Part shown: positions 2,505-31,435 of the stretch, one piece after another
Layout of the letters: each line of letters begins with the position of its first letter
How positions within the stretch are numbered: position 1 is the first letter of the stretch
From: Candidatus Saccharimonadota bacterium
GTDB taxonomy: Bacteria > Patescibacteriota > Saccharimonadia > Saccharimonadales > SZUA-47
Direction: 5' to 3'
DNA length: 35,549 nucleotides
Assembly (NCBI GenBank): GCA_035329185.1
Contig: DAOLHH010000001.1
Location: 1-35,549 of the forward strand
Notes under the pieces: generated by a model
The model's database searches: none
Told to the model about the DNA's origin: nothing
Seen by the model: the letters and a program-made list of their open reading frames with translations, nothing else
Program-made: the position numbers and the translations under genes

Positions 2505-4136
2505 TTATTCAGTAATCGACACTTCTCCGGCTGCGTAACGTCGTTGCAATTCAGACAGATCATTTACTGGTATCGATTTTCTATACCCTTTCAGATTCCC
2601 GGTCGCAGGGTCTACAGAATCAAATCTGACCACTATATCTCTCCTCCCGATTTCTGGGTCGAAATTCGCTCGGAGAATTTGCGCCTGAGAAAATCTATCG
2701 CCATTCTTTCCTCGAGGTATTATGACTGACTGACCTAAATAGAGATCAGTACCCTGTATCATATGCCTCTTGTCTTTTTCTTGTGCCCACCATCGTTCGT
2801 TTTCTGGCAAAGTTTGCGGCAACGACGGCTTATCGCTATCCTTAAACACCGCCACGCTTGGCGCTCCCTCAAGCACCTGACGTGCCTTATTTAACATATT
2901 CTGTTGCATGCTCACTTGTTTATCAAAATCTTCTTGAGCTTTTTGGCTTTGCCATTGTTTAAATTCAGTCTCTTTAACAAACAATCTATCAGTGGCATTC
3001 CCATGGCCTGCTTTTTCTATGACATACATAACTACTGTTTCGCCCTTGTTTTGAAATTTCTGAATCTTTGCAACACGCCAAGAACTATCTTCAACCGTGC
3101 CATCACGAACGACTCGGAATTCCCCGTCGACAACACCAGCGCGCTCTGCATAACTTGGTTTCAGTGCGTGCTTATCTAATTGCGGGGCTCGATCACTAGT
3201 ACGACCGACTTCTACGACAACTGCAGAGCGATCGTCAATTTTTGGTTGGCGACCATTGGCTGTGCTACCTGCTGCTTGTACAAGTCGCTCAGCTTTTTGA
3301 GCCGGAGTCTCTTGTGGATTATTAAGCACTAGCTGTGCAATCGCCATTTCATTTGACTCACCTGGCATCAATTTCTGATGGGCATAATCTCCTGTTACAC
3401 CATCAGAAGCTACCACAATCTTGTCGCCTTTGCGAACTCGTATTTTTTTTAAGGTAGAAGGACCTTCGTACAGTCCCGCACCAAAACCATTACTAATTAC
3501 ATTTGGCGATGCGTGCGCACGTTGCATATACTCTGCATCCGTCTCTATTTTGTAATTCTGCATCGCTCGAGAAGGGTTCTTTGCATATTCCGAAAGCATT
3601 TCTTGCTCAAGCGTGTCATCGGTTGTTAACTGAGCAACCGCACCATCACTTCGCACTAAAAATATTGGTGAGTCACCGACGCTGGCGATAAATGCATCAG
3701 CATCACCATTCTCATCGAGCTCACCAATCAACACAACAGAACCAGTAGAGCCTCGCTTGACATCTACGGCAACAGCCTCCGCCATCTCATCGAATGTGGC
3801 GCTCAACTGTTCTAGGGTGTCTCCCGCGAACGTACCCTTGGTGACCTTCTCGTGGAGTACCTGACGAGCAGCCTGTGATGCTTCTTGTCCATGATCATGA
3901 CCCCCGACACCATCGAACACTGCTGCAATCGTGAACTTACCGTCTGCAGACACACCAGAATATATCGAATCTTCATTCCGTTCAGGATGGCCTTCGTGAG
4001 CTTCCTGCTTCATGCCGATGACTGCCTGTGGCGTTACCAGTTCTGGGCCAACCTGCAGCATGTATTTCTCTGCAGAGGTAAAGTGAGCAGCGACTAGACT
4101 GTTTGGTTGCGGTAGCTGACTTTCTGGTGATGGCAT
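2505..4136 (-). CDS. PP2C-family (PPM) Ser/Thr protein phosphatase with a ~230-aa uncharacterised C-terminal extension
   Basis: PPM motifs in order: AAVFDGVGGHDHGQEAS, GSTGSVVLI, ASVGDSPIFLVR, AQLTTDDT, GDKIVVASDGVTGD, KIDDRSAVVVEV. I cannot place residues ~311-543 in any family. Confidence 0.85.
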   Translation of the reverse strand: MPSPESQLPQPNSLVAAHFTSAEKYMLQVGPELVTPQAVIGMKQEAHEGHPERNEDSIYSGVSADGKFTIAAVFDGVGGHDHGQEASQAARQVLHEKVTKGTFAGDTLEQLSATFDEMAEAVAVDVKRGSTGSVVLIGELDENGDADAFIASVGDSPIFLVRSDGAVAQLTTDDTLEQEMLSEYAKNPSRAMQNYKIETDAEYMQRAHASPNVISNGFGAGLYEGPSTLKKIRVRKGDKIVVASDGVTGDYAHQKLMPGESNEMAIAQLVLNNPQETPAQKAERLVQAAGSTANGRQPKIDDRSAVVVEVGRTSDRAPQLDKHALKPSYAERAGVVDGEFRVVRDGTVEDSSWRVAKIQKFQNKGETVVMYVIEKAGHGNATDRLFVKETEFKQWQSQKAQEDFDKQVSMQQNMLNKARQVLEGAPSVAVFKDSDKPSLPQTLPENERWWAQEKDKRHMIQGTDLYLGQSVIIPRGKNGDRFSQAQILRANFDPEIGRRDIVVRFDSVDPATGNLKGYRKSIPVNDLSELQRRYAAGEVSITE

Positions 4137-10877: not shown

Positions 10878-10923
10878 TAATGATTTTGACGCCTCACCTT
10901 ATAACACGAATCCAGCTTATAGG

Positions 10924-14502: not shown

Positions 14503-14528
14503 AATCGATACTCCGCACCGGCGCGGTC
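14499..14528 (-). repeat. Direct repeat copy B: the functional 3' end of ftsE
   Basis: tcataatcgatactccgcaccggcgcggtc, 134 bp from copy A. Confidence 0.9.
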
Positions 14529-15179
14529 TTCGTACACGCGGCCATCCTTGATGGTCACGACACGGCGTTTGAGTTTATCTACGATTTCTTTATTATGCGT
14601 CGTAAGCAGCACGGTGGTGCCATAGCGATTAATTTTTTCGAGCACACGAATGACGTCCCACGCATGCTTTGGATCAAGGTTACCGGTGGGTTCGTCTGCA
14701 ATCAATATCTTTGGTTGACGCACAATTGCTCGCGCGATAGCAACTCGTTGTCGCTCGCCACCCGATAGTTCGCTTGGATAATTATCGCCTTTACCCTTTA
14801 GGCCAACAATGTCGAGCACTTTTGGCACCGTGTGACGAATTTCTTTATTGCTCATACCGACGATTTCGAGTGCGAAAGCAACATTTTCAAATACCGTTCT
14901 GTTCGAAAGTAATTTAAAATCCTGAAAGACAACACCTATTTTGCGTCGTAAAAATGGGATATCTTTATCTCTTAGGCGTTCGTAATCTATGCCACCGACG
15001 ATTATTTTGCCACTCGTTGGCTTTTCTTCTCGAGTTAATAGTTTTAGCAGTGTTGATTTCCCTGCGCCACTTTGTCCTACAATGACCACGAATTCTTTTG
15101 GTTCAACATGTAAATTGATACGCTCGAGTGCTGGCCCTTTTTTGCCATATGTTTTGGTCACCCTATCCAGCAGAATCAT
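14499..15179 (-). CDS. ftsE: Cell-division ABC transporter ATP-binding protein FtsE
   Basis: Walker A GQSGAGKST, signature LSGGERQR, Walker B ILIADEPTGNLD; adjacent to ftsX. Confidence 0.93.
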   Translation of the reverse strand: MILLDRVTKTYGKKGPALERINLHVEPKEFVVIVGQSGAGKSTLLKLLTREEKPTSGKIIVGGIDYERLRDKDIPFLRRKIGVVFQDFKLLSNRTVFENVAFALEIVGMSNKEIRHTVPKVLDIVGLKGKGDNYPSELSGGERQRVAIARAIVRQPKILIADEPTGNLDPKHAWDVIRVLEKINRYGTTVLLTTHNKEIVDKLKRRVVTIKDGRVYEDRAGAEYRL

Positions 15180-17598: not shown

Positions 17599-20217
17599 CT
17601 ATTTACGTTTGCGACTTGCTTTGCGATTTTTACGTTCAGCTTTACGCTTCTTTTTGCGTGTATTATGCACTTTTGCCGCTTGATTCGTCGCGGTCGATTG
17701 CTTCGTTACCGAAAAATCATCCTCATGAAATTCTTCATCTGTTAGTACGATTTTATCAGCATTGTCTACTGAGCTTCGAGCGGCACGTGTCAATTCAGTT
17801 TCAATTGGATTATCCATATCGTCAGCTTCCACGGGTCGCGCATGGAAAATCGCTCGAATCACGTCATGTCTCAACACACCTTGCATTTCTTCGAACATCA
17901 CTTTTGATTGTCGACGGTATTCAACGAGTGGATCGCGTTGACCAACAGAAATCCAGTGGATACCTTGTCGCAAGTGATCCATGTTTTCTAAGTGCTGCAT
18001 CCAAAGATTGTCCATGACTTGGAGATAAATATCGCGCTCGACTTTTTCCATGATGTCTTGACCGAATGCTTCGGTTTGTTGCTCGTAACGATTCAGCACT
18101 TCTTTCTGAAGAGCCTTTTCAAATTTATCTGCTTCGGTATCGAAGAGCTTGTCGAGCACGCTATCTTCTAGGCCAAATGTTTCTCGCAATTGCGCTTCGA
18201 ATGCATCAGAATAACTGTCTGGTGAGCTTACCATGAGCTTAACCTGTTCGCTCAAGAATTCTTTCACTTTATTAGTGATATTCGCTTGCTTTAAGACTTC
18301 TTTTCGTAGGGTATAAATCGCCACACGGTGACGGTTCATCACATCGTCGTACTGCACGACATTTTTACGCATATCAAAGTTAAAGCCCTCGACGCGTTTC
18401 TGTGCTGCCTCAAGACTACGACTAATGACGCGGTTTTGAATTGGCATGCTGTCGTCGATTTTCAGACGATTCATTACGGCCCTAATTCGATCACCACCGA
18501 AGACGCGCATCAGGTCATCTTCTGTGCTCACATAGAACTGTGTCTCACCTGGGTCACCCTGTCGACCAGAACGGCCTCGGAGCTGGTTATCGATTCGACG
18601 AGACTCATGACGCTCCGAACCAAGCACGTATAAACCACCGAGCTCTTGAACGCCTTCACCAAGGACAATGTCGGTACCACGACCGGCAATGTTGGTTGCA
18701 AGTGTCACCGCACCCTTCTGTCCAGCTTGCGCAACAATATGCGCTTCGCGCTCGTTGTTTTTTGCATTGAGCACCTGATGTTTGACACCTGCTTTAGTCA
18801 GCAAGCGACCTAGCTCTTCGTTATGTTCAATGGCGCTCGTACCAATAAGTACCGGCTGTCCTTTTTGTTGCAACACCTTTACATCGGCTACAATTGCAGC
18901 GTATTTACCCTTCTTTGTGCGATAAATTTTATCAGGCTTGTCGATACGTGCAAGCGTACGATTCGTTGGCACCGATACCACTTCGAGTTTATAAATCTGA
19001 TGAAATTCTTCTTCCTCCGTCTTTGCTGTACCAGTCATACCGGAGAGCTTTGAGTACAGACGGAAATAGTTTTGGAATGATATCGTCGCGAGCGTCATGC
19101 TTTCTTCCTGAACCTCAACATGTTCTTTTGCTTCGATTGCCTGATGCAAGCCTTCGTTGTATCGTCGTCCTTTCAAAAGACGTCCAGTAAACTCATCGAC
19201 AATGACAATCTCGCCATCGTTCGTGACAACATAATCTTTGTCGCGCTTGAACAGTGCTTCAGCCCGAAGTGCTTGATCGAGGTGATAGATCGTACGAATA
19301 TTTTCAGTATCATACAGATTGCTGATGCCGAGTGCTTTTTCAACAAAAGTAATACCCGCATCAGTCAGAGTGACCGCTCGGCGTTTTTCATCGACTTCGA
19401 AATGCTTATCGCGCTTGAGTTGACGTGCGAGTTTTGAAAATTGCTCATATGCTGCGCCACTCGTTGCCGAAGGAGCAGAAATGATAAGTGGTGTTCGGGC
19501 TTCATCAATCAAAATTGAGTCGACCTCGTCAACGATGGCAAAGTTCAGCTCACGCTGTCTAAGCTGACGAACTTCGCGTACCATGTTGTCGCGCAGGTAG
19601 TCAAAGCCGAATTCATTGTTCGTACCATAGGTAATATCTGCACCATACGCTTCTTGACGCGTACATGGCTTCAGGTGACGAAAACGTGGGTCTTCATGCT
19701 CTTCGTTTGTATAAGACTCATCGTAAATAAAACTATGGTCAGGAATGATGACTCCAACGCTCAAACCGAGCGCGCTATAGATTTGACCCATCCAACCTGC
19801 GTCACGCTGAACGAGGTATTCGTTTACGGTCACGACGTGGACACCCTTGCCCTGCAACGCATTCAAATAAACAGGAAGTGTTGCGACCAACGTCTTCCCT
19901 TCTCCGGTCCGCATCTCTGCGACCTTGCCCTCGTGAAGCACCATTCCACCAATAAGCTGAACATCGAAATGTCTTTGCTGAATTTGACGCCAAGCCATTT
20001 CTCGAACCGTCGCGAATGCCTCAGGTAAAATCGTATCGAGTGTCTGGCCTTTTTTCGTGAGCTTCTTGCGCAATTCTTCCGTTTTTGCTTTAAGATCTGC
20101 ATCAGATAGCTCTTTAAACGCTTCTTCGAAAGCATTTATTTCTTTAACGCGTTTTCTCAACCGCTTGAGTGTCTTAGCTTCTGGGTCGCCAAGTACTTTT
20201 TTGACCAGTTTTTTCAT
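17599..20217 (-). CDS. secA: Preprotein translocase ATPase SecA
   Basis: MRTGEGKTLVATL (Walker A), FAIVDEVDSILIDEARTPLIIS (DEAD-like), TNIAGRGTDI and GRSGRQGDPG. The C-terminus is polybasic (RKKKRKAERKNRKASRKRK) with no Cys-rich zinc motif. Confidence 0.96.
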   Translation of the reverse strand: MKKLVKKVLGDPEAKTLKRLRKRVKEINAFEEAFKELSDADLKAKTEELRKKLTKKGQTLDTILPEAFATVREMAWRQIQQRHFDVQLIGGMVLHEGKVAEMRTGEGKTLVATLPVYLNALQGKGVHVVTVNEYLVQRDAGWMGQIYSALGLSVGVIIPDHSFIYDESYTNEEHEDPRFRHLKPCTRQEAYGADITYGTNNEFGFDYLRDNMVREVRQLRQRELNFAIVDEVDSILIDEARTPLIISAPSATSGAAYEQFSKLARQLKRDKHFEVDEKRRAVTLTDAGITFVEKALGISNLYDTENIRTIYHLDQALRAEALFKRDKDYVVTNDGEIVIVDEFTGRLLKGRRYNEGLHQAIEAKEHVEVQEESMTLATISFQNYFRLYSKLSGMTGTAKTEEEEFHQIYKLEVVSVPTNRTLARIDKPDKIYRTKKGKYAAIVADVKVLQQKGQPVLIGTSAIEHNEELGRLLTKAGVKHQVLNAKNNEREAHIVAQAGQKGAVTLATNIAGRGTDIVLGEGVQELGGLYVLGSERHESRRIDNQLRGRSGRQGDPGETQFYVSTEDDLMRVFGGDRIRAVMNRLKIDDSMPIQNRVISRSLEAAQKRVEGFNFDMRKNVVQYDDVMNRHRVAIYTLRKEVLKQANITNKVKEFLSEQVKLMVSSPDSYSDAFEAQLRETFGLEDSVLDKLFDTEADKFEKALQKEVLNRYEQQTEAFGQDIMEKVERDIYLQVMDNLWMQHLENMDHLRQGIHWISVGQRDPLVEYRRQSKVMFEEMQGVLRHDVIRAIFHARPVEADDMDNPIETELTRAARSSVDNADKIVLTDEEFHEDDFSVTKQSTATNQAAKVHNTRKKKRKAERKNRKASRKRK

Positions 20218-20329: not shown

Positions 20330-20707
20330 TCAACGCGAAAAGAATTTACCGATAGCACGACGAGCTTTCGAGTTCTCATGCTTGTCTTGCGATTGTGAAT
20401 GTTTTTCCTTATGCTTTTTTAGCTGATTTTGCAATTTTGTCTCAACAATGTCCACTGCTGCAAACATATTTATTGTTGATTCTACTGCGGTCAATCGCGC
20501 GCCAGGAATATGTAAAATGACTTCACAGGTACATCGTTTCCCATTTTTAACACTCGTCGATTCATTGAGCTTAACGTCTGCACGTACCTCAGATCGCTGA
20601 GATCGTTTAAGCCGTTTATCAAGCTTTCCAATCTTCTTTGTGATATATCGTTCCAACTCGTGGGTTACATCGGTCTTCATACCGGTGATTGCTATATTTT
20701 CTATCAT
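20330..20707 (-). CDS. hpf: Ribosome hibernation promoting factor (S30EA / RaiA family)
   Basis: MIENIAITGMKTDVTHELERYITKKIGKLDK is a typical HPF N-terminus; ~125 aa; ATGA overlap with the serS stop. Confidence 0.8.
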   Translation of the reverse strand: MIENIAITGMKTDVTHELERYITKKIGKLDKRLKRSQRSEVRADVKLNESTSVKNGKRCTCEVILHIPGARLTAVESTINMFAAVDIVETKLQNQLKKHKEKHSQSQDKHENSKARRAIGKFFSR

Positions 20708-22059
20708 ATGGTCGTCCTCCCTCCCATATATTTTTGTAAAACATCCGGAACACGTATTGTGCCATCCTCGTTCTGATAATTTTCTGTAATTGCGGCCAAA
20801 ATACGACTCATCGCAAAAGCTGTTGCGTCATTAGTGTGCACAAATTGAAGTCTACTTCCTGCTTCTTTGAAATCCGAGGCTTCATTATTGTTCACCTCTT
20901 TAGCGGGTTTGAAATCTCGATTTGTGGTTTTGATTTTGAGATCCCTCGCTTGATAGTCAGTCATATAGTCTGCGGTATGAGTTTCTATGTAACGATCTTG
21001 CCCCGGAAACCAGCAATTAATATCTATACCGGCAGCATTTGGCTTCCCGATATCGGCAGTTGATTTTTGTATGAATTGGTAATGTAGACCCAGCTGCTGC
21101 ACAAGATACTCTTGGATTGCATACATAAATTTATGCTCCTCCAGTCCTGTATCAGCATCGCTAAATACTTCCATTTCTAATTTATCGAATTGGTGTAATC
21201 GAATAATTCCTTCAGTATCCTTACCGTACGTTCCGGCTTCACGCCTAAAACTAGTACTGTAACCTATATATCTGATAGGCAAGCTCTCAGCAGATAGAGT
21301 TTCATTCCAGTACATGGTGCACAGCGTGTGCTCAGCGCTCGCGTTTAACCATAAATCATCATCTTCAAGTTTATAAGTCACTTCGGCTGCGTTTAATCTT
21401 GCGCTTGCTACATACGGCTCAGTCCTGAGCAATGCAGGTGGAAGTACAGGTACGAATGGTTTAGAGCTTATCGTGAGATTATTCTTCGAGATGATTTTAT
21501 TTAAAACATCTTCATCCATTAAACTATCCAAAACGAACTGAACAATTGCAAATTGAAGCTTTACTATTCCTCCCTTAAGGTAGGTGAACCTACTTCCGGA
21601 TATCTTCGACGCGCGTTCCTTGTCCATCATGTCCCGAGTAGCTAAAATCTCCCAGTGTGGTCTCGGTGTGAAAGAAAAAATCGGTTTATTTCCGACGGTT
21701 TTTGCCACTACATTATCGTCTTCAGTCTCTCCGACTGGTACATGTTCGAGCGCAATATTTGGAATTCTTTTCAGCTCATCGTTCAATTCCTGATCAAGCT
21801 TACCAAGCAATTCTTCTCTTTCATTTAACTCAACTTTGATTTGTTTGCCAACATCGATAAGCTGAGAATCCGGTTTTCCATTTTTCATTTGAGCACTTAT
21901 TTGGTTTCTCTTCTCACGTAGCTCATCAACAATTTTCTGCAATTCTCGACGCTTCTTATCGAGATCCACAAGTTTGACTGTATCCACCTCGACCTGCTTT
22001 TGTTTACTTTTTTCCCTAACAAACTCTGGTTGGTTTCGAAGTATTTGAATGTCTATCAT
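20704..22059 (-). CDS. serS: Seryl-tRNA synthetase
   Basis: N-terminal coiled-coil arm MIDIQILRNQPEFVRE..., class II core (FRREAGTYGKDTEGIIRLHQFDK.E), and C-terminal ENYQNEDGTIRVPDVLQKYMGG. Confidence 0.93.
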   Translation of the reverse strand: MIDIQILRNQPEFVREKSKQKQVEVDTVKLVDLDKKRRELQKIVDELREKRNQISAQMKNGKPDSQLIDVGKQIKVELNEREELLGKLDQELNDELKRIPNIALEHVPVGETEDDNVVAKTVGNKPIFSFTPRPHWEILATRDMMDKERASKISGSRFTYLKGGIVKLQFAIVQFVLDSLMDEDVLNKIISKNNLTISSKPFVPVLPPALLRTEPYVASARLNAAEVTYKLEDDDLWLNASAEHTLCTMYWNETLSAESLPIRYIGYSTSFRREAGTYGKDTEGIIRLHQFDKLEMEVFSDADTGLEEHKFMYAIQEYLVQQLGLHYQFIQKSTADIGKPNAAGIDINCWFPGQDRYIETHTADYMTDYQARDLKIKTTNRDFKPAKEVNNNEASDFKEAGSRLQFVHTNDATAFAMSRILAAITENYQNEDGTIRVPDVLQKYMGGRTTI

Positions 22060-22101: not shown

Positions 22102-23103
22102 TTAAGACTTTATATAATTTATAACCAACACCAGAAAAACAATAAACAAAAGCAGTGTCATTGCTTTAAGTTGCCAACGAGTTCGTTTCAGCTCAAGTAC
22201 ATAAGATTTCCTATACTTGGCGTTCAACTTAGTGATTGCCTCAAGTTCTTGGCCTCGATATTCAAATTTTTTTCCAGATTCAAAGTTGAGGGTTCTTATG
22301 CGGTGCAACAATTCTTTTCTTAGTTTCTCACCTGCTATTAACATATTTTTCATTCGCTCATCGGTTCTCTGGTCATTTGTCGCTAGAACATAAAGCGCAT
22401 TGTCAACAATTTCGACATCAAATTCTTTGAAATGTGTTATCAATACTGCCATTACATCTGGAGAGAGTATACTCAACGCATCAGTGTATAGTCCTTTTTG
22501 AACAGATACAATGAAGTGTTTATTCATATCACCTTCTAACTCAATAGTTTCAAAACCTTTAGGTGCTTGCATTAAACCACCTGAATTTTTAACGCTATCA
22601 ATCGCTATGTATGGTAAATGTTTTGGCAACTCAGAATATAGAATAGTGTTAACAATTTTGCGGGAGTTTCGGCTATGTGATGTTTCGTACTGATAAGGTA
22701 TGATCACCCATTCTTCTGCTTTTATTGAAAAATCAAAAACACCTCTGTTTACCCCGACATGAAAAATACTCGGTGGAATAAACTTCTTGCTATATACACC
22801 TCTACTCCAGCCATTGATGCGCGCAAACTCATACCAATATTTCTTTCTAAGATCTGTGTACGAGTCAATTACATACGCATTAAAAAGGAATGTACCGAAA
22901 ATGATAATGAATGCGAGGAAGTTATTTTTTATATCAATTATTTCTAGCTCTATAAGTGCGTAGTTAATTACACCTAACAGAACGAATATACCGACACCGA
23001 GATACAGATTACGATTCTTAAATACATAAATGTATGCGTTCACAATTAATCGCGCTTTGGAAAGATTATTAAGCGGACTAAAATCTACTTCATCGATTTT
23101 CAT
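22102..23103 (-). CDS. Hypothetical membrane protein (2 N-terminal TM + 1 C-terminal TM), visibly lower GC than its neighbours
   Basis: ATG 23103 (MKIDEVDF...) makes an ATGA overlap with the upstream nuclease stop; the longer track start is unlikely. The central pattern IELEGDMNKHFIVSV...ALSILSPDVMAVL resembles DUF3137-type proteins, from memory and unverified. Confidence 0.6.
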   Translation of the reverse strand: MKIDEVDFSPLNNLSKARLIVNAYIYVFKNRNLYLGVGIFVLLGVINYALIELEIIDIKNNFLAFIIIFGTFLFNAYVIDSYTDLRKKYWYEFARINGWSRGVYSKKFIPPSIFHVGVNRGVFDFSIKAEEWVIIPYQYETSHSRNSRKIVNTILYSELPKHLPYIAIDSVKNSGGLMQAPKGFETIELEGDMNKHFIVSVQKGLYTDALSILSPDVMAVLITHFKEFDVEIVDNALYVLATNDQRTDERMKNMLIAGEKLRKELLHRIRTLNFESGKKFEYRGQELEAITKLNAKYRKSYVLELKRTRWQLKAMTLLLFIVFLVLVINYIKS

Positions 23104-23894
23104 TTCTTCCTCTTTTGTCGTAAAGCGTTCAATGTTAGTGTAGTGCGAGCCCGAGAGTATTCGCAAAAGTCGCATGGCCCACCCATTGCAGCAGTCCCGA
23201 TTTCAGGCATTTCATCGCTATCCATAACTTTCTTCATACGTACCAATACATCGTCGACCCAATCACTCTTACCGGTATGAGGTATGAGGTGCGTCTCGAA
23301 TTCGACGATATTATTGAATGCGTCACGGTTACTCGTACCCGTTGCGTAGACGAAGTACCCTGTATCGCTAACCTCGAAACCGTTTTGACGGAGGAGCCAC
23401 TGATACGTTTCCATCTGACGTCGATACATATCCTGCCACGTCCCTTCAGCACCGAGTGCCTTAACGGGTTTGTCTTTTGCGGTCGCTTTGTAGTCGACCA
23501 CAATTAGCTTGCCTTCATCGTCAATCCAAACATCATCGACTGCACCAAAAACGTGTAGGTTTGTCGGCTCATGCACATGCACGACTCCGACGAAATTTTC
23601 TCGCCACGTATCAATATCTTTGTGGGCAAATGGTACCGCTTTGATACCATTTTCTTTCATGAGCGGATGCGGTTCGCCACTAATACGATAGGTATCGAAT
23701 TCTTTTTTAAACAGCTCATCAATTGCTTTGTTGATGTTGAATGGTGGGCTTGATGGTCTTTTTATTTTCAGTCGAACATCAAGCCAAAAACAACGCGGAC
23801 ACTGCATAAACAACTCGATTTTACTGCGAGATACTTTGAATACCTCAGTTTGTCCCGGTTTGTACGGTTTGTTCCGTTCTTGCCAATACCCCAT
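23100..23894 (-). CDS. PD-(D/E)XK nuclease superfamily protein (Cas4/RecB-like) with four Cys
   Basis: N-terminal SRSKIELFMQCPRCFW, core DD..GKLIVVDYKAT (D...D/ExK), and C-terminal GGPCDFCEY. Confidence 0.7.
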   Translation of the reverse strand: MGYWQERNKPYKPGQTEVFKVSRSKIELFMQCPRCFWLDVRLKIKRPSSPPFNINKAIDELFKKEFDTYRISGEPHPLMKENGIKAVPFAHKDIDTWRENFVGVVHVHEPTNLHVFGAVDDVWIDDEGKLIVVDYKATAKDKPVKALGAEGTWQDMYRRQMETYQWLLRQNGFEVSDTGYFVYATGTSNRDAFNNIVEFETHLIPHTGKSDWVDDVLVRMKKVMDSDEMPEIGTAAMGGPCDFCEYSRARTTLTLNALRQKRKK

Positions 23895-23900
23895 TGAACT

Positions 23901-24596
23901 CTATTGTAGCAGTGTCGCAGCTGCTATCGCTGCGGTTTCGGCGCGAAGCGTGAAGTCGCTCAAGTCGAGATGCTTCAGTTGATGATCTTGAAATAACTGC
24001 TTTTCGCTATCTGACCACCCACCCTCCGGACCAATGAGCACGGCTAGTGGCTGTGATATCTGATATTTGATATTTGATATTTCGCTCGGAGAGCCTTGTT
24101 CTGCGACAAACAGTTCCGCTTTACCTTTGAGTTCTTTCAGGAGCGTTTCGGCGGTCAATGGCTCGCGCACACGTGGAATATCGGTGCGTCCACATTGTTC
24201 ACTAGCCTCTATGACGATTTTTTCTGCTCGCTCAACATCAAAGCCTGTTTTTTCGGTACGCTCGGTCAATAGCGGGATAAAGTGTCGTACGCCAAGCTCG
24301 GTACCTTTTTGCAAGACCCACTCATTTTTATCTTTTTTCAATAGCGCAAAGCACAGATATAATTCTCTTTTAGGCAACTGTGGCTCGCGTTCAGTCACTA
24401 ATACGAGTTTGACCGCGTTATCACCGTACCGCTCAATTCGGTAAAGTCGTTCTTCTAGTTTATCGTTGAATAACACAAGTTCTCTACCGACCTCAAAGCG
24501 CAAAACCTTCGACCATTGATGAAAAAGTCTTTCATCATCCATCCAGAACTCGTGGGTCAAATCGATGTTTGGTAGATAAAATCGGTGCAGTTTCAT
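23901..24596 (-). CDS. rsmE: 16S rRNA (uracil1498-N3)-methyltransferase
   Basis: MKLHRFYL... N-terminus, a PUA-like region, and the C-terminal knot motif LIGPEGGWSDSE ... LRAETAAIAA. Confidence 0.88.
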   Translation of the reverse strand: MKLHRFYLPNIDLTHEFWMDDERLFHQWSKVLRFEVGRELVLFNDKLEERLYRIERYGDNAVKLVLVTEREPQLPKRELYLCFALLKKDKNEWVLQKGTELGVRHFIPLLTERTEKTGFDVERAEKIVIEASEQCGRTDIPRVREPLTAETLLKELKGKAELFVAEQGSPSEISNIKYQISQPLAVLIGPEGGWSDSEKQLFQDHQLKHLDLSDFTLRAETAAIAAATLLQ

Positions 24597-25867
24597 AACT
24601 TCTCTAATACTACCAGAGATTCGATGTGCGGGGTACGGGGAAAGAAGTTATAGCCATCTAGCCTGAGAATCTTATATTTTTCGAGGAGCTTTTTAACATC
24701 GCGAGCCTGTGTACTTGGGTTGCAACTTAAGTACAAAATCTGAGGGGGTTCGGCCTCTAAAATACGTTCTACCACAGCTGTGTGTAGCCCAGCACGTGGT
24801 GGATCAACGATAAGTGCATGAGCGTCATCAATGTACTCGAGGGCAGTCTCACTTGTCGTATGAACGACTTGTATGGGTAAACTACCGACATTTTGTTTCG
24901 CCATACGGATATTGCCTGCATCAGCTTCGACCAAGACTTGAGTGCCACTGATTGGTATACCAATAGAGCCTACCCCAGAATACATATCTACAGTTGGCAA
25001 AGAACCGCTAAAGTGCTGTATGCGCTCAAGTACCTTCTCGAATATTGGGAGATTTACCTGAAAAAATGAGAATACGTCATATGTGATATTTTTGCCTAAG
25101 AGCTTGTCAGTCAGTGTTATATCACCGTTGATATAAATATCTTTCGTACGCACACTGGCGGGGCTTTTCGGGTTACTATAGACGACGGCAAGATTGTCAC
25201 ACTTCAGCTTTATAAAGTCTTCAGTCTTCACAAAAAGAGCACCGACAACTTTATGATGACTATTTTTTGTGCTCTGGCTACAGCGTAGTATGACCGACTT
25301 GATGTCGCCTGCTCGCACTTTCAGTTGGTTTAATTCAAATAAGAGTTTATCAGCATAATCAGCAATTTCATCAGGAATTAGCGTGCTATATGGGTATACC
25401 AGTTTAATCTTTATATGGGTCGCGCGAAGATAGTGTGCGAAGTGTAGACCCTCATCGTCCCCCCAAAAACTAAACTCAATTTTGTTGCGATAGCCAGTAA
25501 CACCACCTGCTGTTTCAATTTCCGGCACCGTAACTTCTACACCCTCTCGCCGGAATACTTCCTGTAAAATATCTCTTTTTGACTGAAGTTCGCTTCCGTA
25601 GTTCATGATTGTCCATGGAGCAACCGATAAATTGATATCTTTTCTTTCTAGAAAGTCAGCGCGGTCAGTGCTTTTTTCTATTATTTCTGTTGCATAGCCT
25701 TCGGCATAATCTTTTTTTGACTTGAATACTTCTATGCTAACGAGCTCACCCGGAAGTGCATTCCAGATGAACACCTTGCGCCCATCTTCAAGTGATCCCA
25801 TAGCCTGTCCACCATGAACGAGTTTTTCAATACGAATATTTTGATATATCTTTGACTGCATCTTCAT
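24593..25867 (-). CDS. 23S rRNA (uracil-5)-methyltransferase, RumA/RlmD-RlmCD family, with TRAM domain
   Basis: TRAM domain GGQAMG...VFIWNALPGELVSIEV, then VDPPRAGL, LYLSCNPSTQARD (catalytic Cys) and FPRTPHIESLVVL. No Fe-S cysteine cluster is evident. Confidence 0.85.
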   Translation of the reverse strand: MKMQSKIYQNIRIEKLVHGGQAMGSLEDGRKVFIWNALPGELVSIEVFKSKKDYAEGYATEIIEKSTDRADFLERKDINLSVAPWTIMNYGSELQSKRDILQEVFRREGVEVTVPEIETAGGVTGYRNKIEFSFWGDDEGLHFAHYLRATHIKIKLVYPYSTLIPDEIADYADKLLFELNQLKVRAGDIKSVILRCSQSTKNSHHKVVGALFVKTEDFIKLKCDNLAVVYSNPKSPASVRTKDIYINGDITLTDKLLGKNITYDVFSFFQVNLPIFEKVLERIQHFSGSLPTVDMYSGVGSIGIPISGTQVLVEADAGNIRMAKQNVGSLPIQVVHTTSETALEYIDDAHALIVDPPRAGLHTAVVERILEAEPPQILYLSCNPSTQARDVKKLLEKYKILRLDGYNFFPRTPHIESLVVLEKL

Positions 25868-26310
25868 AACAGCCCCATAAATTCTAGTGTATGCTTTGTT
25901 GGTGGTGAGAGTGATATGCGCGTCAAATCATCGAAAGACCACCATCTCGCATCTGTAAAATCGTCGGCTTCCTGCACATGGGCATCTTTAGTACTTACAG
26001 CTAGCGTAACTTTATAATTGAAAAAATCATATTCGCCAATAACTCGTTCACCCGTTTCTTTCAGTATTTTCTCACTCGTCCCCGTATGTCGAAGGGTCAA
26101 CGCTTCAACTTTCGCATTCGATATATTAATTCCCGTTTCTTCAAGAACTTCCCTGTACAATGCTTCTTCAGCTGACTCGCCCGCTTCTATGCCACCACCT
26201 GGCACAATCCACATGCCTTCATAGGTAGCACGATTACTCTTTCCTAGCAGTATTTTTTTATCTGCAGAAATGATAAACGCTCCGACAATATCTCGCTTGA
26301 TAGTTCTCAT
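25864..26310 (-). CDS. NUDIX hydrolase
   Basis: Nudix box GGGIEAGESAEEALYREVLEETGI. ATG 26310 (MRTIKRDIVG...) is used; the 219-aa track form would overlap the heliorhodopsin gene and cross its terminator. Confidence 0.85.
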   Translation of the reverse strand: MRTIKRDIVGAFIISADKKILLGKSNRATYEGMWIVPGGGIEAGESAEEALYREVLEETGINISNAKVEALTLRHTGTSEKILKETGERVIGEYDFFNYKVTLAVSTKDAHVQEADDFTDARWWSFDDLTRISLSPPTKHTLEFMGLL

Positions 26311-26327
26311 AGTTGTCTTATTGTAAC

Positions 26328-26358
26328 AAAAACCCCTCTCAAGACCGAGAGGGGTTTT
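26328..26358 (-). terminator. Rho-independent terminator after the heliorhodopsin gene
   Basis: Stem aacccctctc (26331-26340) / gagaggggtt (26347-26356), loop aagacc, T-rich tail on the minus strand, 25 nt after the stop at 26381. Confidence 0.75.
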
Positions 26359-26380: not shown

Positions 26381-27382
26381 CTATGGGCGCAATGTGCCGG
26401 CAAATACCTGCCATGCGAGCGCGCTCTTAGCGACCAAGCTGAGGACAATATAGGCTTTTTCTCCGTAAAGATAATCGGCCCACTTGCCTTTCTTCTTATA
26501 CTGCAACCACATATTGAGTGCAAATACGTTGAAGAAGAGGAAGATACTTACTAAGATTGCGTATACAAAATCAGGTGGTCCACCGCCTTCACCGTATTGT
26601 GCACTTCCGTAAACGTACAATGCGTAGGTAACCCATGGGAGTATACCGGCAATACAACCGACTATGTAAGCAGTCCAGTCGATACTACCCCGCCCCGCAT
26701 TAACTTTTTCCATGACAAGTCCACAAAGATTCATCACTGCCGTTAGACCGAACATCATGATAAGCGTACTCAGGTCATAAATACCTGCAATCATTGCGAT
26801 AGCAATAATCATCGTACTCGCACTAAAACTATACTCAATCCAGCGAGCTTTGTTCATGCCTTGTTCAAGATTTGTTTCATATTTCTTGCGATACCATGTC
26901 GCAATAGAAAGATGTGCAATTGCTGACATAAAGAAAAATGCCGCAACAATATATGCCACGTTTACATCAAAAAGATGACGTGTCGCAGGAACCAACACCG
27001 GATCTCCTCCAGAAGTAAGCGGGTCTAGTGTTAAGTGGTCTGTGGTCACAGGGAATAAAACATTTTTGCTGAGCAACACCACTGCGACACCTTGTGCTGC
27101 ATGGAGAACCGTCATCGCAATATTCCATTTGCGTAAATTTTTTAATCTATCAAATACTTTTTTTGGAGCAGATGATTTTTCTGCTTTTTTCACTTCTGTC
27201 TTTACTTCGACAACCGGAGCTTTCGTTGCTCGTGACGCAGAAGCACTTTTCGCTTTTGCTGTTGCCGTTTTCTTCGTTACTGCAGTCGTTTTGGCGCGAG
27301 CTGCTGACGCCTTACCCTTGGTTGATTTCTGAGTGGTCGAAGCTCGCTTCGAAGCACCAGATTTTTTCTTCGTTGTAGCCAT
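26381..27382 (-). CDS. Heliorhodopsin (7-TM retinal protein) with an ~85-aa Lys/Ala/Thr-rich N-terminal extension
   Basis: Seven hydrophobic helices with a long TM1-TM2 loop. Motifs I recall from heliorhodopsins such as 48C12: RWIEYSFSAS (TM3 Glu), VGCIAGILPW, FVYAILVSIFLFFNVFALNMWLQYKKKGKW, and AYIVLSLVAKSALAWQVF (TM7 Schiff-base Lys). Confidence 0.8.
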   Translation of the reverse strand: MATTKKKSGASKRASTTQKSTKGKASAARAKTTAVTKKTATAKAKSASASRATKAPVVEVKTEVKKAEKSSAPKKVFDRLKNLRKWNIAMTVLHAAQGVAVVLLSKNVLFPVTTDHLTLDPLTSGGDPVLVPATRHLFDVNVAYIVAAFFFMSAIAHLSIATWYRKKYETNLEQGMNKARWIEYSFSASTMIIAIAMIAGIYDLSTLIMMFGLTAVMNLCGLVMEKVNAGRGSIDWTAYIVGCIAGILPWVTYALYVYGSAQYGEGGGPPDFVYAILVSIFLFFNVFALNMWLQYKKKGKWADYLYGEKAYIVLSLVAKSALAWQVFAGTLRP

Positions 27383-27389
27383 AGCAGTT

Positions 27390-27416
27390 ACTATAGCATA
27401 TACGGGAGTGTATCAA
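27390..27416 (-). promoter_or_regulatory. Candidate heliorhodopsin promoter: TTGATA-15 nt-TGcTATAGT, with -10 ending 7 nt before the ATG
   Basis: Minus strand reads TTGATAcactcccgtataTGCTATAGTaactgctATG. No SD. Confidence 0.45.
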
Positions 27417-27434: not shown

Positions 27435-29198
27435 CTACGGACAAGGGTCCTTATTTGAGTAGCTAAAGTCATACTTTGCTTCAAGATAATTTTCGATGCC
27501 CTGTATTTCACTACAAATGAATGAGCGGTCGTAAACAATAATCTCAGCCACATCCATGTTTGCATAATCTGCTCCGGATGCGGTACTGCGTCTCCCGCCA
27601 ATGTAAATTTGGTTAATCGTATAGTTTGGCGTGAAGTGTGATCCATAGTTATCAGGTGTGCTATTTTTTAACAATCTTTCGGACGAAGAACCACTCATTC
27701 TTGAAGAATAGGTTCCCCACGTATCGTCTATGGCGCTCGATACTGTGCGACCTGTTGTCCCGTTATAATATTGTTGAATGGTAGTTGTTGATCCATTTCG
27801 CATAAAAGGAATCAATCCATTGGATGTATTATTATCGGCGTTCTGAGAAGAGTTCATAAGACTCAAAAAACGTGCACTCGAGGCTGAAGTCGTGCGAGGA
27901 CGCATGACCATAAATGCCATTAGCTCAGTATCAGAAACTGAACTTGCAAGTGATGAAAGCAAATTACCGTTGTTGCTAAAACGCACTGCGTTTAATCCGT
28001 TTATCTGATTCGTTTTGAGTACCGGTGCTGTTCCGTAACCTAGCACTGCGTTATTACCATTTCCAGATTTATCGTACCAAGCAACAACACTATCTGAATC
28101 GTTTGTGGCTTCTACGGTAGAACCGCTCTGCCATTGTATAAATAATGAAGGTGCTGCACTGGCGCCATCAGTTCCACTTCGAGCAGTTCGGATACCACTT
28201 CCTGTTATCCATTTTATACCGAACGCCATAGCGTTGTTTGGCGCCCAACCTGAACGGTTCACTAATTCTTGCACGATAGAAGTGACGTCAAGTCGCTCAT
28301 TGGCTCCACTCGCTCCTACTGTATTCCAGTTCGGTGGCTGCCATGTTATGATTGCGCTCGTTTTAGATGCGTTCGCCACGGCATATGTTCCGCTCCACGT
28401 ACTTGGGTTATCTGAGGCGACGCCGTATACCTCAAACTGAACCACGCCTGCAGATTTTGTCTCGTCGGTCGTGAACTGGATATACGCATTCTGAATGGTG
28501 GCATTTTTTGGCGTCGTTATTGATCTAAATCGCAGGCCGATTGTTTGATTCCCTTTTGAAGTACCATCATATGACATTTCCAAATCTTGATCGTTAAAGA
28601 GCAATGAACCTTTACTTGAACTTGCGTTACTTCCGCGTTCTTCAACTACATCTGCGTTTGAGGTGCCTGGTAGCGATAATTTTGTGAGCGTATTGGTGGT
28701 CGCAATTGATTCGTAGAGACTGTTTGGCTCATTTGCATCAAGCCAAAGGAGCGGATCGTAGGTCGCAGGGTCGGTCTGTCCAGCAGTCACAATGACTTCC
28801 CCGTTACGGATAATGGTAGATTTAATATCACGTACTACTTTAGCAGTGCTAGAGGTTTCTGGGATATACACCCGACCGATGCCTTGTACACGCTTAGCAC
28901 TCGAACCTTCATCATACAAAATGGTTACTTGTATGGTCGCTCTATAGAAATCGTTTACAAACAAGTCCTGTTCAGCCGTACCAGCATACGCTGCGTTAAG
29001 CTCATACTGCTCCTCGGCATAGTCAATGGCTGCCTTGCTGGCAATATGAGCGATTTGTACTTGTGAGTGCAAAACAGCCGAGCCATTTGTTTGCACCGAA
29101 TTCTCAATAATAGCCGCACCTACGATGCTTATGAGCACAATGAAAGTCAAAATCATTGGCATCGCGAAGCCTTTTTTAAAATGCGGACGTATACGCAT
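27435..29198 (-). CDS. PilX-N-like type IV pilus minor component fused to beta-sandwich and C-terminal LamG-like (Laminin_G_3) domains
   Basis: N-terminal KKGFAMPMILTFIVLISIVGAAII then QIAHIASKAAIDYAEEQY (PilX_N style). C-terminal WYDKSGNGNNAV...NAVRF...IYIGGRR...DVAEIIVYDRSF is a typical LamG-like lectin-fold signature. Confidence 0.7.
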   Translation of the reverse strand: MRIRPHFKKGFAMPMILTFIVLISIVGAAIIENSVQTNGSAVLHSQVQIAHIASKAAIDYAEEQYELNAAYAGTAEQDLFVNDFYRATIQVTILYDEGSSAKRVQGIGRVYIPETSSTAKVVRDIKSTIIRNGEVIVTAGQTDPATYDPLLWLDANEPNSLYESIATTNTLTKLSLPGTSNADVVEERGSNASSSKGSLLFNDQDLEMSYDGTSKGNQTIGLRFRSITTPKNATIQNAYIQFTTDETKSAGVVQFEVYGVASDNPSTWSGTYAVANASKTSAIITWQPPNWNTVGASGANERLDVTSIVQELVNRSGWAPNNAMAFGIKWITGSGIRTARSGTDGASAAPSLFIQWQSGSTVEATNDSDSVVAWYDKSGNGNNAVLGYGTAPVLKTNQINGLNAVRFSNNGNLLSSLASSVSDTELMAFMVMRPRTTSASSARFLSLMNSSQNADNNTSNGLIPFMRNGSTTTIQQYYNGTTGRTVSSAIDDTWGTYSSRMSGSSSERLLKNSTPDNYGSHFTPNYTINQIYIGGRRSTASGADYANMDVAEIIVYDRSFICSEIQGIENYLEAKYDFSYSNKDPCP

Positions 29199-29965
29199 CA
29201 GTTAACCTTCTTCATTGAAATTGATGTTGGTACAGTAATATCTTCGCCATAAATTTTTTCACCCAAAGTAAGGGTTAATTTGACGAGCTCAGCATTGTCC
29301 GGTGAAGTAAGTAATACATTATTATCGTCGTAATACGTTACTTGGAAATCGACTACTTTATCAGACAACTTGGAATCTTCACCGCTACATGGGCTTACCA
29401 CGAGGCCCGCAGGACATGTTTGGGTTTTATAATTCACCCCACATGTCGTGTATTGAGGTACGAGCGTTCGACGATAAAGTGTTCTGTAATTGTTACCTGT
29501 ATTTGCCTTCGTAAAATACATTAAATTATTAATGGCGATATTATAAGACGACGAACAACTACCAGACTTTTTATAAACAAATTCTCGATCAGGATCTCGC
29601 CTGTCTGCCGTCAAAGCTGTTTCGTAGACAATAAGTGTGTCCGTTGGCGAGGTGTTATACGTCCAGCCACCTGATGGTGCGTTTGTATCAGACAAATCAC
29701 TCGATTTCGTCGAAGCAAAATCGGTAGAAAACAGCAACTCGTCTTCAAGCGATAGAAGTAAAATCTCACCCTCCATTCGTAGTCGAGCATGCGCAGCACC
29801 TTGAAGCAAGCCACCATACTGGATAAAGATAGTGTTTGCCAAAACAATAGATAATATCGATGCAAGTGGAATCGCAATCAATATTTCGAGAATGGTGAAG
29901 CCTTTCTTGTGCTTGTATAAGAGAGAGCCTTTATTCAAAGTGAGTTTAAGCATGCGACGCGTCAT
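29198..29965 (-). CDS. Prepilin-type N-terminal cleavage/methylation domain protein (PilW-like minor pilin)
   Basis: KKGFTILEILIAIPLASILSIVLANTIF is a class III signal with Glu at +5. ATGA overlap upstream and a 1-nt overlap downstream. Confidence 0.8.
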   Translation of the reverse strand: MTRRMLKLTLNKGSLLYKHKKGFTILEILIAIPLASILSIVLANTIFIQYGGLLQGAAHARLRMEGEILLLSLEDELLFSTDFASTKSSDLSDTNAPSGGWTYNTSPTDTLIVYETALTADRRDPDREFVYKKSGSCSSSYNIAINNLMYFTKANTGNNYRTLYRRTLVPQYTTCGVNYKTQTCPAGLVVSPCSGEDSKLSDKVVDFQVTYYDDNNVLLTSPDNAELVKLTLTLGEKIYGEDITVPTSISMKKVN

Positions 29966-30414
29966 CTACCGACACCCCCTAATTGAATGTAGGTGCCGTA
30001 TTCAATCGTTCTCATACGTGCGCCGTACTTAAAATCAATAACAACTCGTAAGTTTATAAGTGATTCGGTCGTATCATTTGCATAGCTTGAATAGACCTTT
30101 GCGGTACCCTCTTTTACGTGCCCGTCAGTTATTGTAGGTAGCGAACTTGAAAAATCTTCTATTTCATAATCGTCTGCTTCGTCGCCAATCGTAATATTCG
30201 AGTACGTCTTATTTTCATATTCTTGAATTTTAGCAAATGCAGCTGCGTTGGCAGCAAGTAACGCTTCAGTACGTGCATTGAGCTGGCCTCCAACTGTTAG
30301 AAGCATGAAACCAACAATAAGCACAACAGATGCAAGGACGAGCGCAAACATAACCTCAACGAGACTAAATCCATTACGTATTCTTAATTTCTTACCACCC
30401 AGAGATTTGAACAT
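29962..30414 (-). CDS. Prepilin-type N-terminal cleavage/methylation domain protein (PilV/FimU-like minor pilin)
   Basis: RNGFSLVEVMFALVLASVVLIVGFMLL is a class III signal with Glu at +5. Confidence 0.8.
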   Translation of the reverse strand: MFKSLGGKKLRIRNGFSLVEVMFALVLASVVLIVGFMLLTVGGQLNARTEALLAANAAAFAKIQEYENKTYSNITIGDEADDYEIEDFSSSLPTITDGHVKEGTAKVYSSYANDTTESLINLRVVIDFKYGARMRTIEYGTYIQLGGVGR

Positions 30415-30457: not shown

Positions 30458-30760
30458 TTATTCAGTTACGATGACTCCGTTCCAGAAGGCATAATGATTA
30501 CTGAAATCTTTCTTGACTCGTTCTATAGCCGTAGGAAGCGGATGAGGATACCGAAACGCAACATCTTTACCGATGACTCCATCGACAGTCACATTATAAT
30601 ACTGGCAGTTGCCTTTCCATGGACACGTATACGGTGTAGGACTTTCCGTAAAGTATTCTGACTTTATAGCATCTCCAGGGAAATACCAATTGCCCTCTAT
30701 GTAAATGAGTTCTTCTTTTGGCGCTTCTGCAATTATTGTATTGTTCCAGGTTGCTTTCAT
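30458..30760 (-). CDS. DUF427 domain protein
   Basis: MKATWNNTIIAEAP..IYIEGNWYFPGDAI....FTES..PYTCPWKGNCQYYNV matches the DUF427 pattern as I recall it. GGAG lies 5 nt before ATG 30760. The track's GTG 30793 start lies inside the repeat and is rejected. Confidence 0.7.
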   Translation of the reverse strand: MKATWNNTIIAEAPKEELIYIEGNWYFPGDAIKSEYFTESPTPYTCPWKGNCQYYNVTVDGVIGKDVAFRYPHPLPTAIERVKKDFSNHYAFWNGVIVTE

Positions 30761-30783
30761 ATATGCTCCACTATTACTTTTAT

Positions 30784-30839
30784 CACTACTCACTACTCAC
30801 TACTCACTACTCACTACTCACTACTCACTACTCACTACT
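30784..30839. repeat. Perfect heptanucleotide tandem repeat (CACTACT)x8
   Basis: Counted base by base: eight uninterrupted units, with stop codons in all frames on the minus strand (AGTAGTG)n. It sits between the divergent starts at 30760 and 30881. Confidence 0.97.
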
Positions 30840-30871: not shown

Positions 30872-30880
30872 GTGGTAAGC

Positions 30881-31435
30881 ATGGCGAAAAAACAAAATTC
30901 AATAGATACATCCTTCTCATTAACTCAAGTATCTCGCACTTTATACGGACTACTTGGAGTCATGGCCCTTGCTACGGTTATTTTTGATGCTGGGAATCTC
31001 ATAACAAAAGAGGCGGTAATCGACCGATGGACAGCCTTGTTCATCCTTTTCGTGATTAATACGATTGCTTGGTTCATCGCAAGTGAAGGCACTGCTTTTA
31101 GTAAGCGGGTGCTTACGTTTTTGTTAAGCCTGACGCTTCTTGGATTTGCTGGGGCAATGACCTACTGGGAACGTGGCATGGCGAGCACTTCAACTATTTT
31201 ATATACCTTGCCACTCTTAAGCGTAGCTATCCTTAAAAATCGTCACGCACTTGTCGCAACAACGGGCCTCTGTATTGCTACGTACGCGTACACGAGCGTG
31301 AAATATTTTAACGATTACTTTAACGAAGGATACCGAATTCAATTGTGGGGTAGTATCGTCATGTATAGTGGATTGTTTGTCGTCGTTTCATGGATCATCA
31401 TGATACTGACTGGTCTTCGTAGAGATTCTAAATAG
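30881..31435 (+). CDS. Hypothetical polytopic membrane protein (5-6 TM)
   Basis: Hydrophobic helices throughout and no recognisable family. Alternative GTG start at 30872. Confidence 0.6.
   Translation: MAKKQNSIDTSFSLTQVSRTLYGLLGVMALATVIFDAGNLITKEAVIDRWTALFILFVINTIAWFIASEGTAFSKRVLTFLLSLTLLGFAGAMTYWERGMASTSTILYTLPLLSVAILKNRHALVATTGLCIATYAYTSVKYFNDYFNEGYRIQLWGSIVMYSGLFVVVSWIIMILTGLRRDSK

Follow-up and report, generated by a model that had tools for sequence, protein, structure and literature searches.

The locus

We analysed a stretch of 35,549 nucleotides from a Candidatus Saccharimonadota bacterium (assembly GCA_035329185.1, contig DAOLHH010000001.1), which we call the window, and within it a single open reading frame (ORF) on the minus strand, 26381..27382, that encodes 333 residues followed by a TAG stop and joins a polybasic N-terminal tail to a heliorhodopsin domain. 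Our analysis indicates that the tail belongs to a whole lineage of heliorhodopsins and is kept for its length and charge, and we tentatively propose that it could tether the protein to a cytoplasmic polyanion. The parts of the gene are as follows, with the evidence for each in brackets.

26381..27382, minus strand: complete coding sequence (ORF list, Pfam PF18761, match to 6is6, AlphaFold2 and Foldseek)
27218..27382, minus strand: distal tail, residues 1-55, an acid-free K/A/T/S polycation beginning MATTKKKS (composition, predicted local distance difference test (pLDDT), homologues)
27158..27217, minus strand: proximal tail or linker, residues 56-75 (PVVEVKTEVKKAEKSSAPKK), of mixed charge, before the juxtamembrane helix (D/E distribution in 166 tails, model)
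26390..27136, minus strand: heliorhodopsin domain, residues 83-331, seven transmembrane helices and an extracellular beta-hairpin (Pfam envelope, secondary structure of the model, structural match)
26834..26836, minus strand: codon GAG of the counterion Glu183 (HMMER alignment to 6is6, sequence)
26426..26428, minus strand: codon AAG of the retinal Schiff-base lysine Lys319 (HMMER alignment to 6is6, sequence)

An earlier note on this DNA, written from its letters alone, had recognised the C-terminal ~250 residues as a heliorhodopsin, and a profile search bears this out: residues 83-331 match Pfam PF18761 (Heliorhodopsin) from end to end (profile positions 1-242 of 242, E=3.2e-95, 318.5 bits against a cut-off of 26.7), and all four motifs that the note had quoted are present (RWIEYS at 180, GCIAGILPW at 242, LFFNVFALNMWLQYKKKGKW at 282 and SLVAKSALAWQ at 315). 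The closest solved relative is TaHeR, the heliorhodopsin of the Thermoplasmatales archaeon SG8-52-1 (PDB 6IS6, 7U55; E=4e-69 to 6is6 with HMMER), and 48C12 is also among the best solved relatives. In the alignment to 6is6 the glutamate and the lysine that the note had placed on the third and seventh transmembrane helices are both in position: the counterion Glu183 on helix C, in RWIEYS, aligns with E108 in the RWFEYS of TaHeR, and the Schiff-base lysine Lys319 on helix G, in an SxxxK motif (S315 and K319 in SLVAK), aligns with TaHeR K238. SLVAK is reported to be the commonest helix-G motif in candidate phyla radiation heliorhodopsins (PMC9166423). An AlphaFold2 model built on 96 homologues (mean pLDDT 86.8, core above 90) has seven long helices, with strands at 108-118 and 129-140 that form the long beta-hairpin of the family in the first extracellular loop, and Foldseek superposes it on 6is6 with a target-normalised template modelling score of 0.95 and a root-mean-square deviation of 1.5 A (score 0.90 to 6su3). 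By alignment and predicted fold, the protein is thus a complete retinal-type heliorhodopsin of a Saccharibacteria (TM7, candidate phyla radiation) bacterium.

The solved heliorhodopsins, which share its core, lack its N-terminus. TaHeR is 48-49% identical in the core, with the same fold, counterion and SxxxK lysine, and differs little in helix G and the C-terminus (SLVAKSALAWQVFAGTLRP), but it is archaeal, has ~15 residues before helix A and carries no polybasic tail. Similarly, 48C12 (PDB 6SU3, 6UH3) and the actinobacterial AbHeR belong to the same family and have the same N-in topology, but their cores are ~42% identical and their N-termini short, of the MKPETKLG type. We infer a cytoplasmic N-terminus from homology to the solved N-in heliorhodopsins, so that the tail would face the cytoplasm, as the earlier note had it. 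With helix boundaries taken from the model, Lys and Arg number 22 in the tail, ~11 in the inner loops and juxtamembrane segment together, and 3 in the outer loops and C-terminus, a distribution consistent with that topology. The note had also seen no retinal-biosynthesis gene, and indeed the 31 window ORFs that we scanned contain no retinal or carotenoid biosynthesis domain. This agrees with retinal scavenging by Saccharibacteria, which are reported to lack blh and are presumed to use host retinal or scavenge it (PMC9296517).

The tail itself, residues 1-75, is rich in K, A, T and S, carries a net charge of +19 and is predicted to be disordered. The first 82 residues contain 20 K, 4 R, 17 A, 12 T, 10 S, 4 D/E and 2 Pro, and with L83-R84-K85 added the count becomes 26 K/R in 85 residues, exactly the number that the note had counted. 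The statement that this region holds no hydrophobic segment is also borne out, since no 19-residue window within residues 1-80 exceeds a Kyte-Doolittle mean of -0.03, and the densest 40-residue window of the tail contains no hydrophobic or aromatic residue at all. In the AlphaFold2 model the tail has pLDDT 52-63 and is pure coil to about residue 60, the first helix beginning at about residue 76. Were the protein to dimerise as the solved heliorhodopsins do, the net charge would be about +38 per dimer. The tail has no Cys and no MORN match. Scanned by itself against Pfam with E allowed up to 10, the tail gave nothing above noise (Seryl_tRNA_N at E=0.67, Mucin at E=6.2), and a tail-only search of 5.8 billion proteins gave 31 candidates, none of which scored, although with the core removed that search also missed the tail's own orthologues.

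Translation and expression of the tail

Two elements frame the gene.

27390..27398, minus strand: extended -10 promoter element TGcTATAGT (sequence; same arrangement in tailed loci)
26325..26356, minus strand: intrinsic-terminator-like hairpin CCCCTCTC...GAGAGGGG (26352..26333), then TTTTTGTT (terminator scan)

The TG of the promoter-like element lies at 27398-27397 and TATAGT at 27395-27390; 7 nucleotides then separate it from the ATG at 27382. A weak -35-like TTGATA at 27416..27411 precedes it with a spacer of 15 nucleotides, and there is no Shine-Dalgarno sequence before the ATG. A -10 box that ends 7 nucleotides before the ATG implies a leaderless mRNA, beginning at the start codon itself. 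The arrangement TGnTAtAgT, 7 nucleotides, ATG is kept in 7/7 tailed loci from named genomes as well as in L081 and L082, with a weaker variant (TACAGT, 7 nucleotides, ATG) in L084, and apart from this box the DNA upstream of tailed heliorhodopsin genes is not conserved. The protein start is also kept, as MATT(K/T)K, the N-terminus reading MATT[T/K/S] in 85/109 tailed homologues.

The alternative is that translation begins at GTG codon 64 and that the open frame upstream of it is an artefact of annotation, in which case no tail would be made. Such a start would yield an N-terminus as long as in the tail-less heliorhodopsins, and codon 64 is, with ATG codon 90 inside helix A, one of only two in-frame internal start candidates. 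But neither a promoter nor a Shine-Dalgarno sequence stands ahead of codon 64, the conserved box lies before the upstream ATG instead, and the frame stays open for 48-113 codons in 109/120 homologues. Moreover, the tail evolves as coding sequence: the proportion of nonsynonymous differences (pN) is below that of synonymous ones (pS) in six pairwise comparisons, the corresponding rate ratio (dN/dS) is roughly 0.2-0.55 where dS is unsaturated, and the DNA is strongly periodic by codon (51% C at position 2). We therefore reject an internal start, which we regard as very improbable, and on five lines of evidence (the promoter-like box, its conservation, the MATT start, the lack of a credible internal start, and pN<pS with codon periodicity) the tail is to all appearances translated.

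It had been proposed that the gene forms an insulated single-gene unit with its own extended -10 element 7 nucleotides from the ATG and its own terminator. Both elements are there in promoter-like and terminator-like form. The hairpin begins 29 nucleotides past the stop codon, where the plus strand also reads as a terminator, and the scan of the region gave 8 terminator-like sites against 1.4±1.3 in shuffled sequence. A separate TGtTACAAT box stands 9 nucleotides before the ATG of the Nudix hydrolase gene that follows (25864..26310), so the heliorhodopsin gene looks monocistronic. Insulation, however, is more than we would claim: the terminator scan found no terminator between the gene and the pilin-like gene upstream, and leaderless-type -10 boxes stand at about seven other window genes, so that this appears to be the ordinary mode of expression rather than special insulation. 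A TAnnnT -10-like box lies 7-9 nucleotides before the start at 14499-15179, 20704-22059, 23100-23894, 23901-24596, 25864-26310 and 29962-30414, often with TG upstream of the box and with no Shine-Dalgarno sequence, which suggests that leaderless mRNAs may be common in this organism.

Distribution and conservation

We compared the N-termini of the 120 best of 6,504 homologues and of the 150 best cluster representatives at 50% identity, a survey for similar extensions that the earlier note had suggested. An N-terminal extension of 48-113 residues (median 72; K+R 31%, D+E 3%, net charge +12 to +26) is present in 109/120 of the best homologues. Of the remaining 11, seven have short basic N-termini and four begin inside helix A or a few residues before it; these four seem to have been truncated in gene calling on short contigs. 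Extensions of at least 35 residues occur in 65 of the 150 cluster representatives, and clearly polybasic ones in 46. In these samples the tailed form is evidently the dominant one among Saccharibacteria heliorhodopsins, as judged from the nearest homologues, and the note's description of the architecture as unusual does not hold within the lineage. In species-representative genomes long polybasic tails occur only in Saccharibacteria, while the heliorhodopsins of Chloroflexota, Thermoleophilia, Nanopelagicales and archaea have N-termini of 10-30 residues or zinc ribbons.

What is conserved in these tails? Over 166 pooled tails the length is 70±13 residues and the net charge +19±3.7, and D/E make up 0.8% of residues outside the last 25 as against 6.8% in the 25 residues before the first transmembrane helix (helix A). 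TTK, TKK and KKP are enriched, and basic residues come in pairs about four apart, but MATT and short TKK-type repeats are the only linear motifs conserved in the 166 tails. The pooled composition of 109 tails is K 29%, T 21%, S 13%, A 12.5% and P 4%, with Thr and Ser together at 34%. Amino-acid identity is 40-65% in the tail where it is 62-89% in the core, and the rate of evolution of the tail is 3-4 times that of the core. These comparisons show, as far as sequences can, a lineage-wide feature whose length, charge and lack of acidic residues, rather than its sequence, are maintained by selection. In a neighbour-joining tree tailed and tail-less heliorhodopsins are interspersed, which implies repeated gain or loss, or some miscalled starts.

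We also asked how common such segments are in these genomes, with a polybasic filter run on 780 ORFs of at least 80 residues from the window and 23 Saccharibacteria loci (~400 kb). Three kinds of ORF passed: heliorhodopsin tails, K/R-rich SecA C-termini, and two short ORFs of ~100 residues (L011, L062) that are probably spurious. The acid-free K/T/S/A-rich segment was found only on heliorhodopsins among these 780 ORFs, and is thus not a proteome-wide habit. One cluster, P0128, carries an opposite kind of N-terminal extension, of 69 residues with 22 D/E and 9 K/R.

The syntenic slot and heliorhodopsins without the retinal lysine

The related loci come from Candidatus Saccharibacteria metagenome-assembled genomes, and their synteny with the window extends across more than 20 kb, in the order tRNA synthetases, GreA, DUF427, a pilin-like cluster, heliorhodopsin, a RumA-like methyltransferase, RsmE, a PD-(D/E)XK nuclease, SerRS, HPF and SecA. 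The same chromosomal slot holds a heliorhodopsin with a tail in L001-L004, L008 and L071 and without one in L005, L006, L007 and L014. For cluster representatives outside named genomes, assignment to Saccharibacteria by synteny extends to two only, P0270 and P0194; a genome scan with P0144 by itself gave no match.

In the core alignment the helix-G lysine is missing in 59/339 family members, with the flanking ALAWQVF motif intact, and most of these Lys-less members also lack the counterion Glu. All but one (58/59) fall among the 150 nearest cluster representatives (P0121-P0270), of which they make up ~39%. A polybasic tail is present in 32/59 (the 59 include L006b). The Lys-less P0270 and P0194, traced to their contigs, are both tailed and lie in the Saccharibacteria slot of the window gene; in P0270 the -10 box is likewise complete, and P0194 has the weaker TACAGT variant. 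The two genes lie as follows.

L082:8001-8972 and L084:648-1580: Lys-less tailed heliorhodopsins in the syntenic slot

In L006 there is a tandem pair, a canonical tail-less, Lys-bearing heliorhodopsin (10001-10765) followed 60 nucleotides downstream by a tailed paralogue (10828-11748) that is divergent, with Arg for Lys and Asp for Glu (Pfam E=5.5e-28). Since heliorhodopsins are dimers, a heterodimer of this pair is conceivable. Lys-less orthologues that keep tail, slot and promoter indicate that the role of the tail needs no photochemistry in the same chain, and the scaffold with its tail evidently, on this comparative evidence, has a role that survives loss of the chromophore. In the literature that we searched we found no description of Lys-less heliorhodopsins.

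Discussion

How might such a tail be put to use? The earlier note had called it histone-H1-like, which is apt for its charge and disorder, but the likeness seems to end there: the pooled tails are rich in Thr and Ser and poor in Pro and Ala (Pro 2/82 in the window protein), their enriched tripeptides are TTK, TKK and KKP rather than S/TPKK, and in Pfam neither the full-length protein nor its isolated tail matches, even at E up to 10, a linker-histone domain (PF00538) or Bac_DNA_binding (HU/IHF). The mycobacterial HupB tail and Chlamydia Hc1 are Lys-rich, disordered and nearly acid-free and bind DNA and/or polyphosphate, and H1 and HupB tails are richer in Pro and Ala and poorer in Thr and Ser than the pooled heliorhodopsin tails. 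Pseudomonas AlgP has a K-rich disordered tail that likewise binds DNA or polyphosphate (PMC9239181). The heliorhodopsin tail resembles all three in being long, disordered, Lys-rich and nearly acid-free. They are, however, soluble nucleoid or granule proteins with Ala/Pro repeats (KPAA, PAKKA), while the tail studied here is Thr/Ser-rich and Pro-poor, has no sequence homology to them and is fused to a seven-helix membrane photoreceptor. Among the membrane-to-chromatin tethers of eukaryotes and plastids, the multi-pass or single-pass proteins lamin B receptor and PEND turn a basic N-terminal region that binds nucleic acid towards the DNA compartment; these offer an analogy, with no homology to the window heliorhodopsin.

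Cytoplasmic additions to the heliorhodopsin N-terminus have precedents. In Bulzu et al. (2021, PMC8612252), Znf-HeR (with a zinc ribbon) and MORN-HeR are described as cytoplasmic N-terminal fusions and proposed as output or transducer modules, in small clades of 6 and 36 sequences; that paper and its preprint also mention further N-terminal extensions without matches. Those two fusions are like the present one in position, but they are folded domains, whereas our tail is disordered, of low complexity and found in dozens of 50%-identity clusters. In our own loci zinc-ribbon N-termini occur only in L021 and L023, both from Thermoplasmatales. Surveys of candidate phyla radiation heliorhodopsins make no mention of the tail or of Lys-less forms, and in searches of the literature on disordered, positively charged or N-terminal features, including 2024-2026 papers, we found no description of the tail. 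Within the literature searched it is therefore undescribed, although it may be one of the variants ntv4-10 that Bulzu et al. leave unnamed.

We propose, tentatively and at somewhat less than an even chance, that the tail tethers the protein electrostatically to a polyanion in the cytoplasm. The tail would reach from the membrane to its target, most probably nucleoid DNA or RNA on the nucleoid, which in a cell a few hundred nanometres across would lie within reach of the membrane, and binding would hold the heliorhodopsin dimer against the nucleic acid, or the nucleic acid against the membrane. In members that bind retinal, the slow photocycle would change the cytoplasmic face beside the juxtamembrane helix that bears the tail, and the contact could thus be modulated; in Lys-less orthologues the tethering role would persist without light. 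We favour the tether because charge and length rather than sequence are conserved, because the distal tail lacks the hydrophobic residues that would favour a bilayer (its composition suggests a soluble polyanion as the better fit), because the bacterial precedents AlgP and HupB bind DNA or polyphosphate, and because topology does not need the tail. On this last point, we reject a topogenic necessity, since tail-less positional orthologues exist and the core itself obeys the positive-inside rule. Several points weigh against the tether. Polyanion binding and signalling are purely our inference; the tail has, in the searches described, no detectable homologue or domain; its composition, as read from the pooled tails, is not that of H1 or HupB; tail-less heliorhodopsins in the same slot show that it is dispensable in some lineages; the compared loci have no conserved DNA-repair or signalling partner adjoining the heliorhodopsin gene; and a polycation near an anionic membrane will also bind lipid headgroups.

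Such binding might indeed be the whole of the matter. The tail could lie on the membrane, held by anionic lipids of the inner leaflet (phosphatidylglycerol, cardiolipin), and gather the heliorhodopsin into clusters or fix its place in the cell, perhaps at a pole or a host-contact site, or organise a lipid domain. A disordered chain of about +19 net charge anchored directly at the membrane is suited to this, and its retention in Lys-less orthologues fits a structural or organisational role in the membrane. However, characterised polybasic membrane anchors usually contain hydrophobic or aromatic residues, which the distal tail lacks; ~70 residues far exceed the length needed to reach the headgroups; and it is the acidic or mixed linker, not the most basic part, that adjoins the membrane. 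We consider lipid binding unlikely. The tail might instead have no specific ligand and be a tolerated low-complexity expansion of the short basic N-terminus common to all heliorhodopsins, perhaps aiding leaderless translation or N-in insertion, with its length drifting by slippage. Tail-less relatives already begin with short basic stretches such as MKKQSISLKKKQK and MAKKKKKKITIEG, the rapid evolution of the tail and the scatter of gains and losses over the tree are as one would expect, and an AT-rich genome (43.5% GC) favours Lys codons. Yet net charge and length vary little among more than 160 diverged tails, from which acidic residues are almost excluded, pN is below pS, no other such expansion occurs among the filtered ORFs, and the core already obeys the positive-inside rule. 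A near-neutral expansion is, in our view, doubtful.

A further possibility is that the tail serves as a docking or regulatory region, a long capture arm for an acidic partner, much as glutamine synthetase is bound by heliorhodopsin loops, and/or a substrate of Ser/Thr kinases, with phosphorylation switching off its charge. Thr and Ser make up a third of the pooled tails, the window encodes a PP2C phosphatase (2505..4136), and the experimentally studied heliorhodopsins act through protein-protein contacts of cytoplasmic basic residues; AbHeR, for one, signals by direct protein contact through basic residues of its cytoplasmic face (PMC9529153). But AbHeR shares its operon with the gene for its partner, glutamine synthetase, while the heliorhodopsin here has no conserved partner gene beside it, its neighbours being housekeeping genes; the tails have no conserved linear motif beyond those noted above; and the PP2C gene is 22 kb distant. 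Docking or regulation by phosphorylation thus seems quite unlikely to us. The nucleic-acid tether remains the account that we prefer, and it has a bolder version, in which the tail serves the photoreceptor as its output arm: nucleic acid would be bound directly by the rhodopsin, light would change the contact of the nucleoid or RNA with the membrane, and the Lys-less forms would be derived, light-blind tethers. This extension we hold to be rather improbable. If true, a direct polyanion-binding output would be known for the first time in a microbial rhodopsin, and the heliorhodopsins of a whole phylum would gain a testable function.

The function of heliorhodopsins is still debated and few partner-specific cases are known. 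Against this background, we have a phylum-wide subfamily with a disordered polycationic arm on the signalling face, no linked partner gene, and repeated loss of the retinal lysine with the arm kept. It bears on the organisation of membrane and nucleoid in ultra-small episymbiotic bacteria, and it raises the question of a light-independent role for the seven-helix scaffold.

Other features of the neighbourhood

The Nudix gene (25864-26310, minus strand) sits between the heliorhodopsin and the RumA-like methyltransferase. It is missing from this slot in 10/10 syntenic loci, which points to a local insertion and not a partner, and we rejected it as a functional partner on that ground. In L082 and L084 a HAD hydrolase occupies the slot that holds the Nudix gene in the window. 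Directly upstream of the heliorhodopsin, the pilin-like cluster (27435-30414, minus strand) encodes proteins of 587 and 255 residues without Pfam matches and one of 150 residues with an N-terminal methylation motif; the cluster is kept upstream in L001, L002, L004 and L071, though not in L082.

Farther away, the PP2C-type Ser/Thr phosphatase (543 residues, 2505-4136) is of possible interest because the tail is rich in Thr and Ser, and a stand-alone response-regulator receiver lies at 6969-7352 (minus strand). A tandem repeat of the heptanucleotide TCACTAC (8.1 copies, 100% matches, 30783-30839) borders or overlaps the DUF427 gene (30458..30793, minus strand) at its 5' end, in the gap before a divergent ORF at 30872..31435, and slippage of the 7-nucleotide unit could shift frame or promoter spacing. 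Finally, SecA (17599-20217, minus strand) has a K/R-rich C-terminal tail, with 16 K/R in its last 40 residues (...KKKRKAERKNRKASRKRK), and this feature is kept in the syntenic SecA of L001, L002, L005, L007 and L008.

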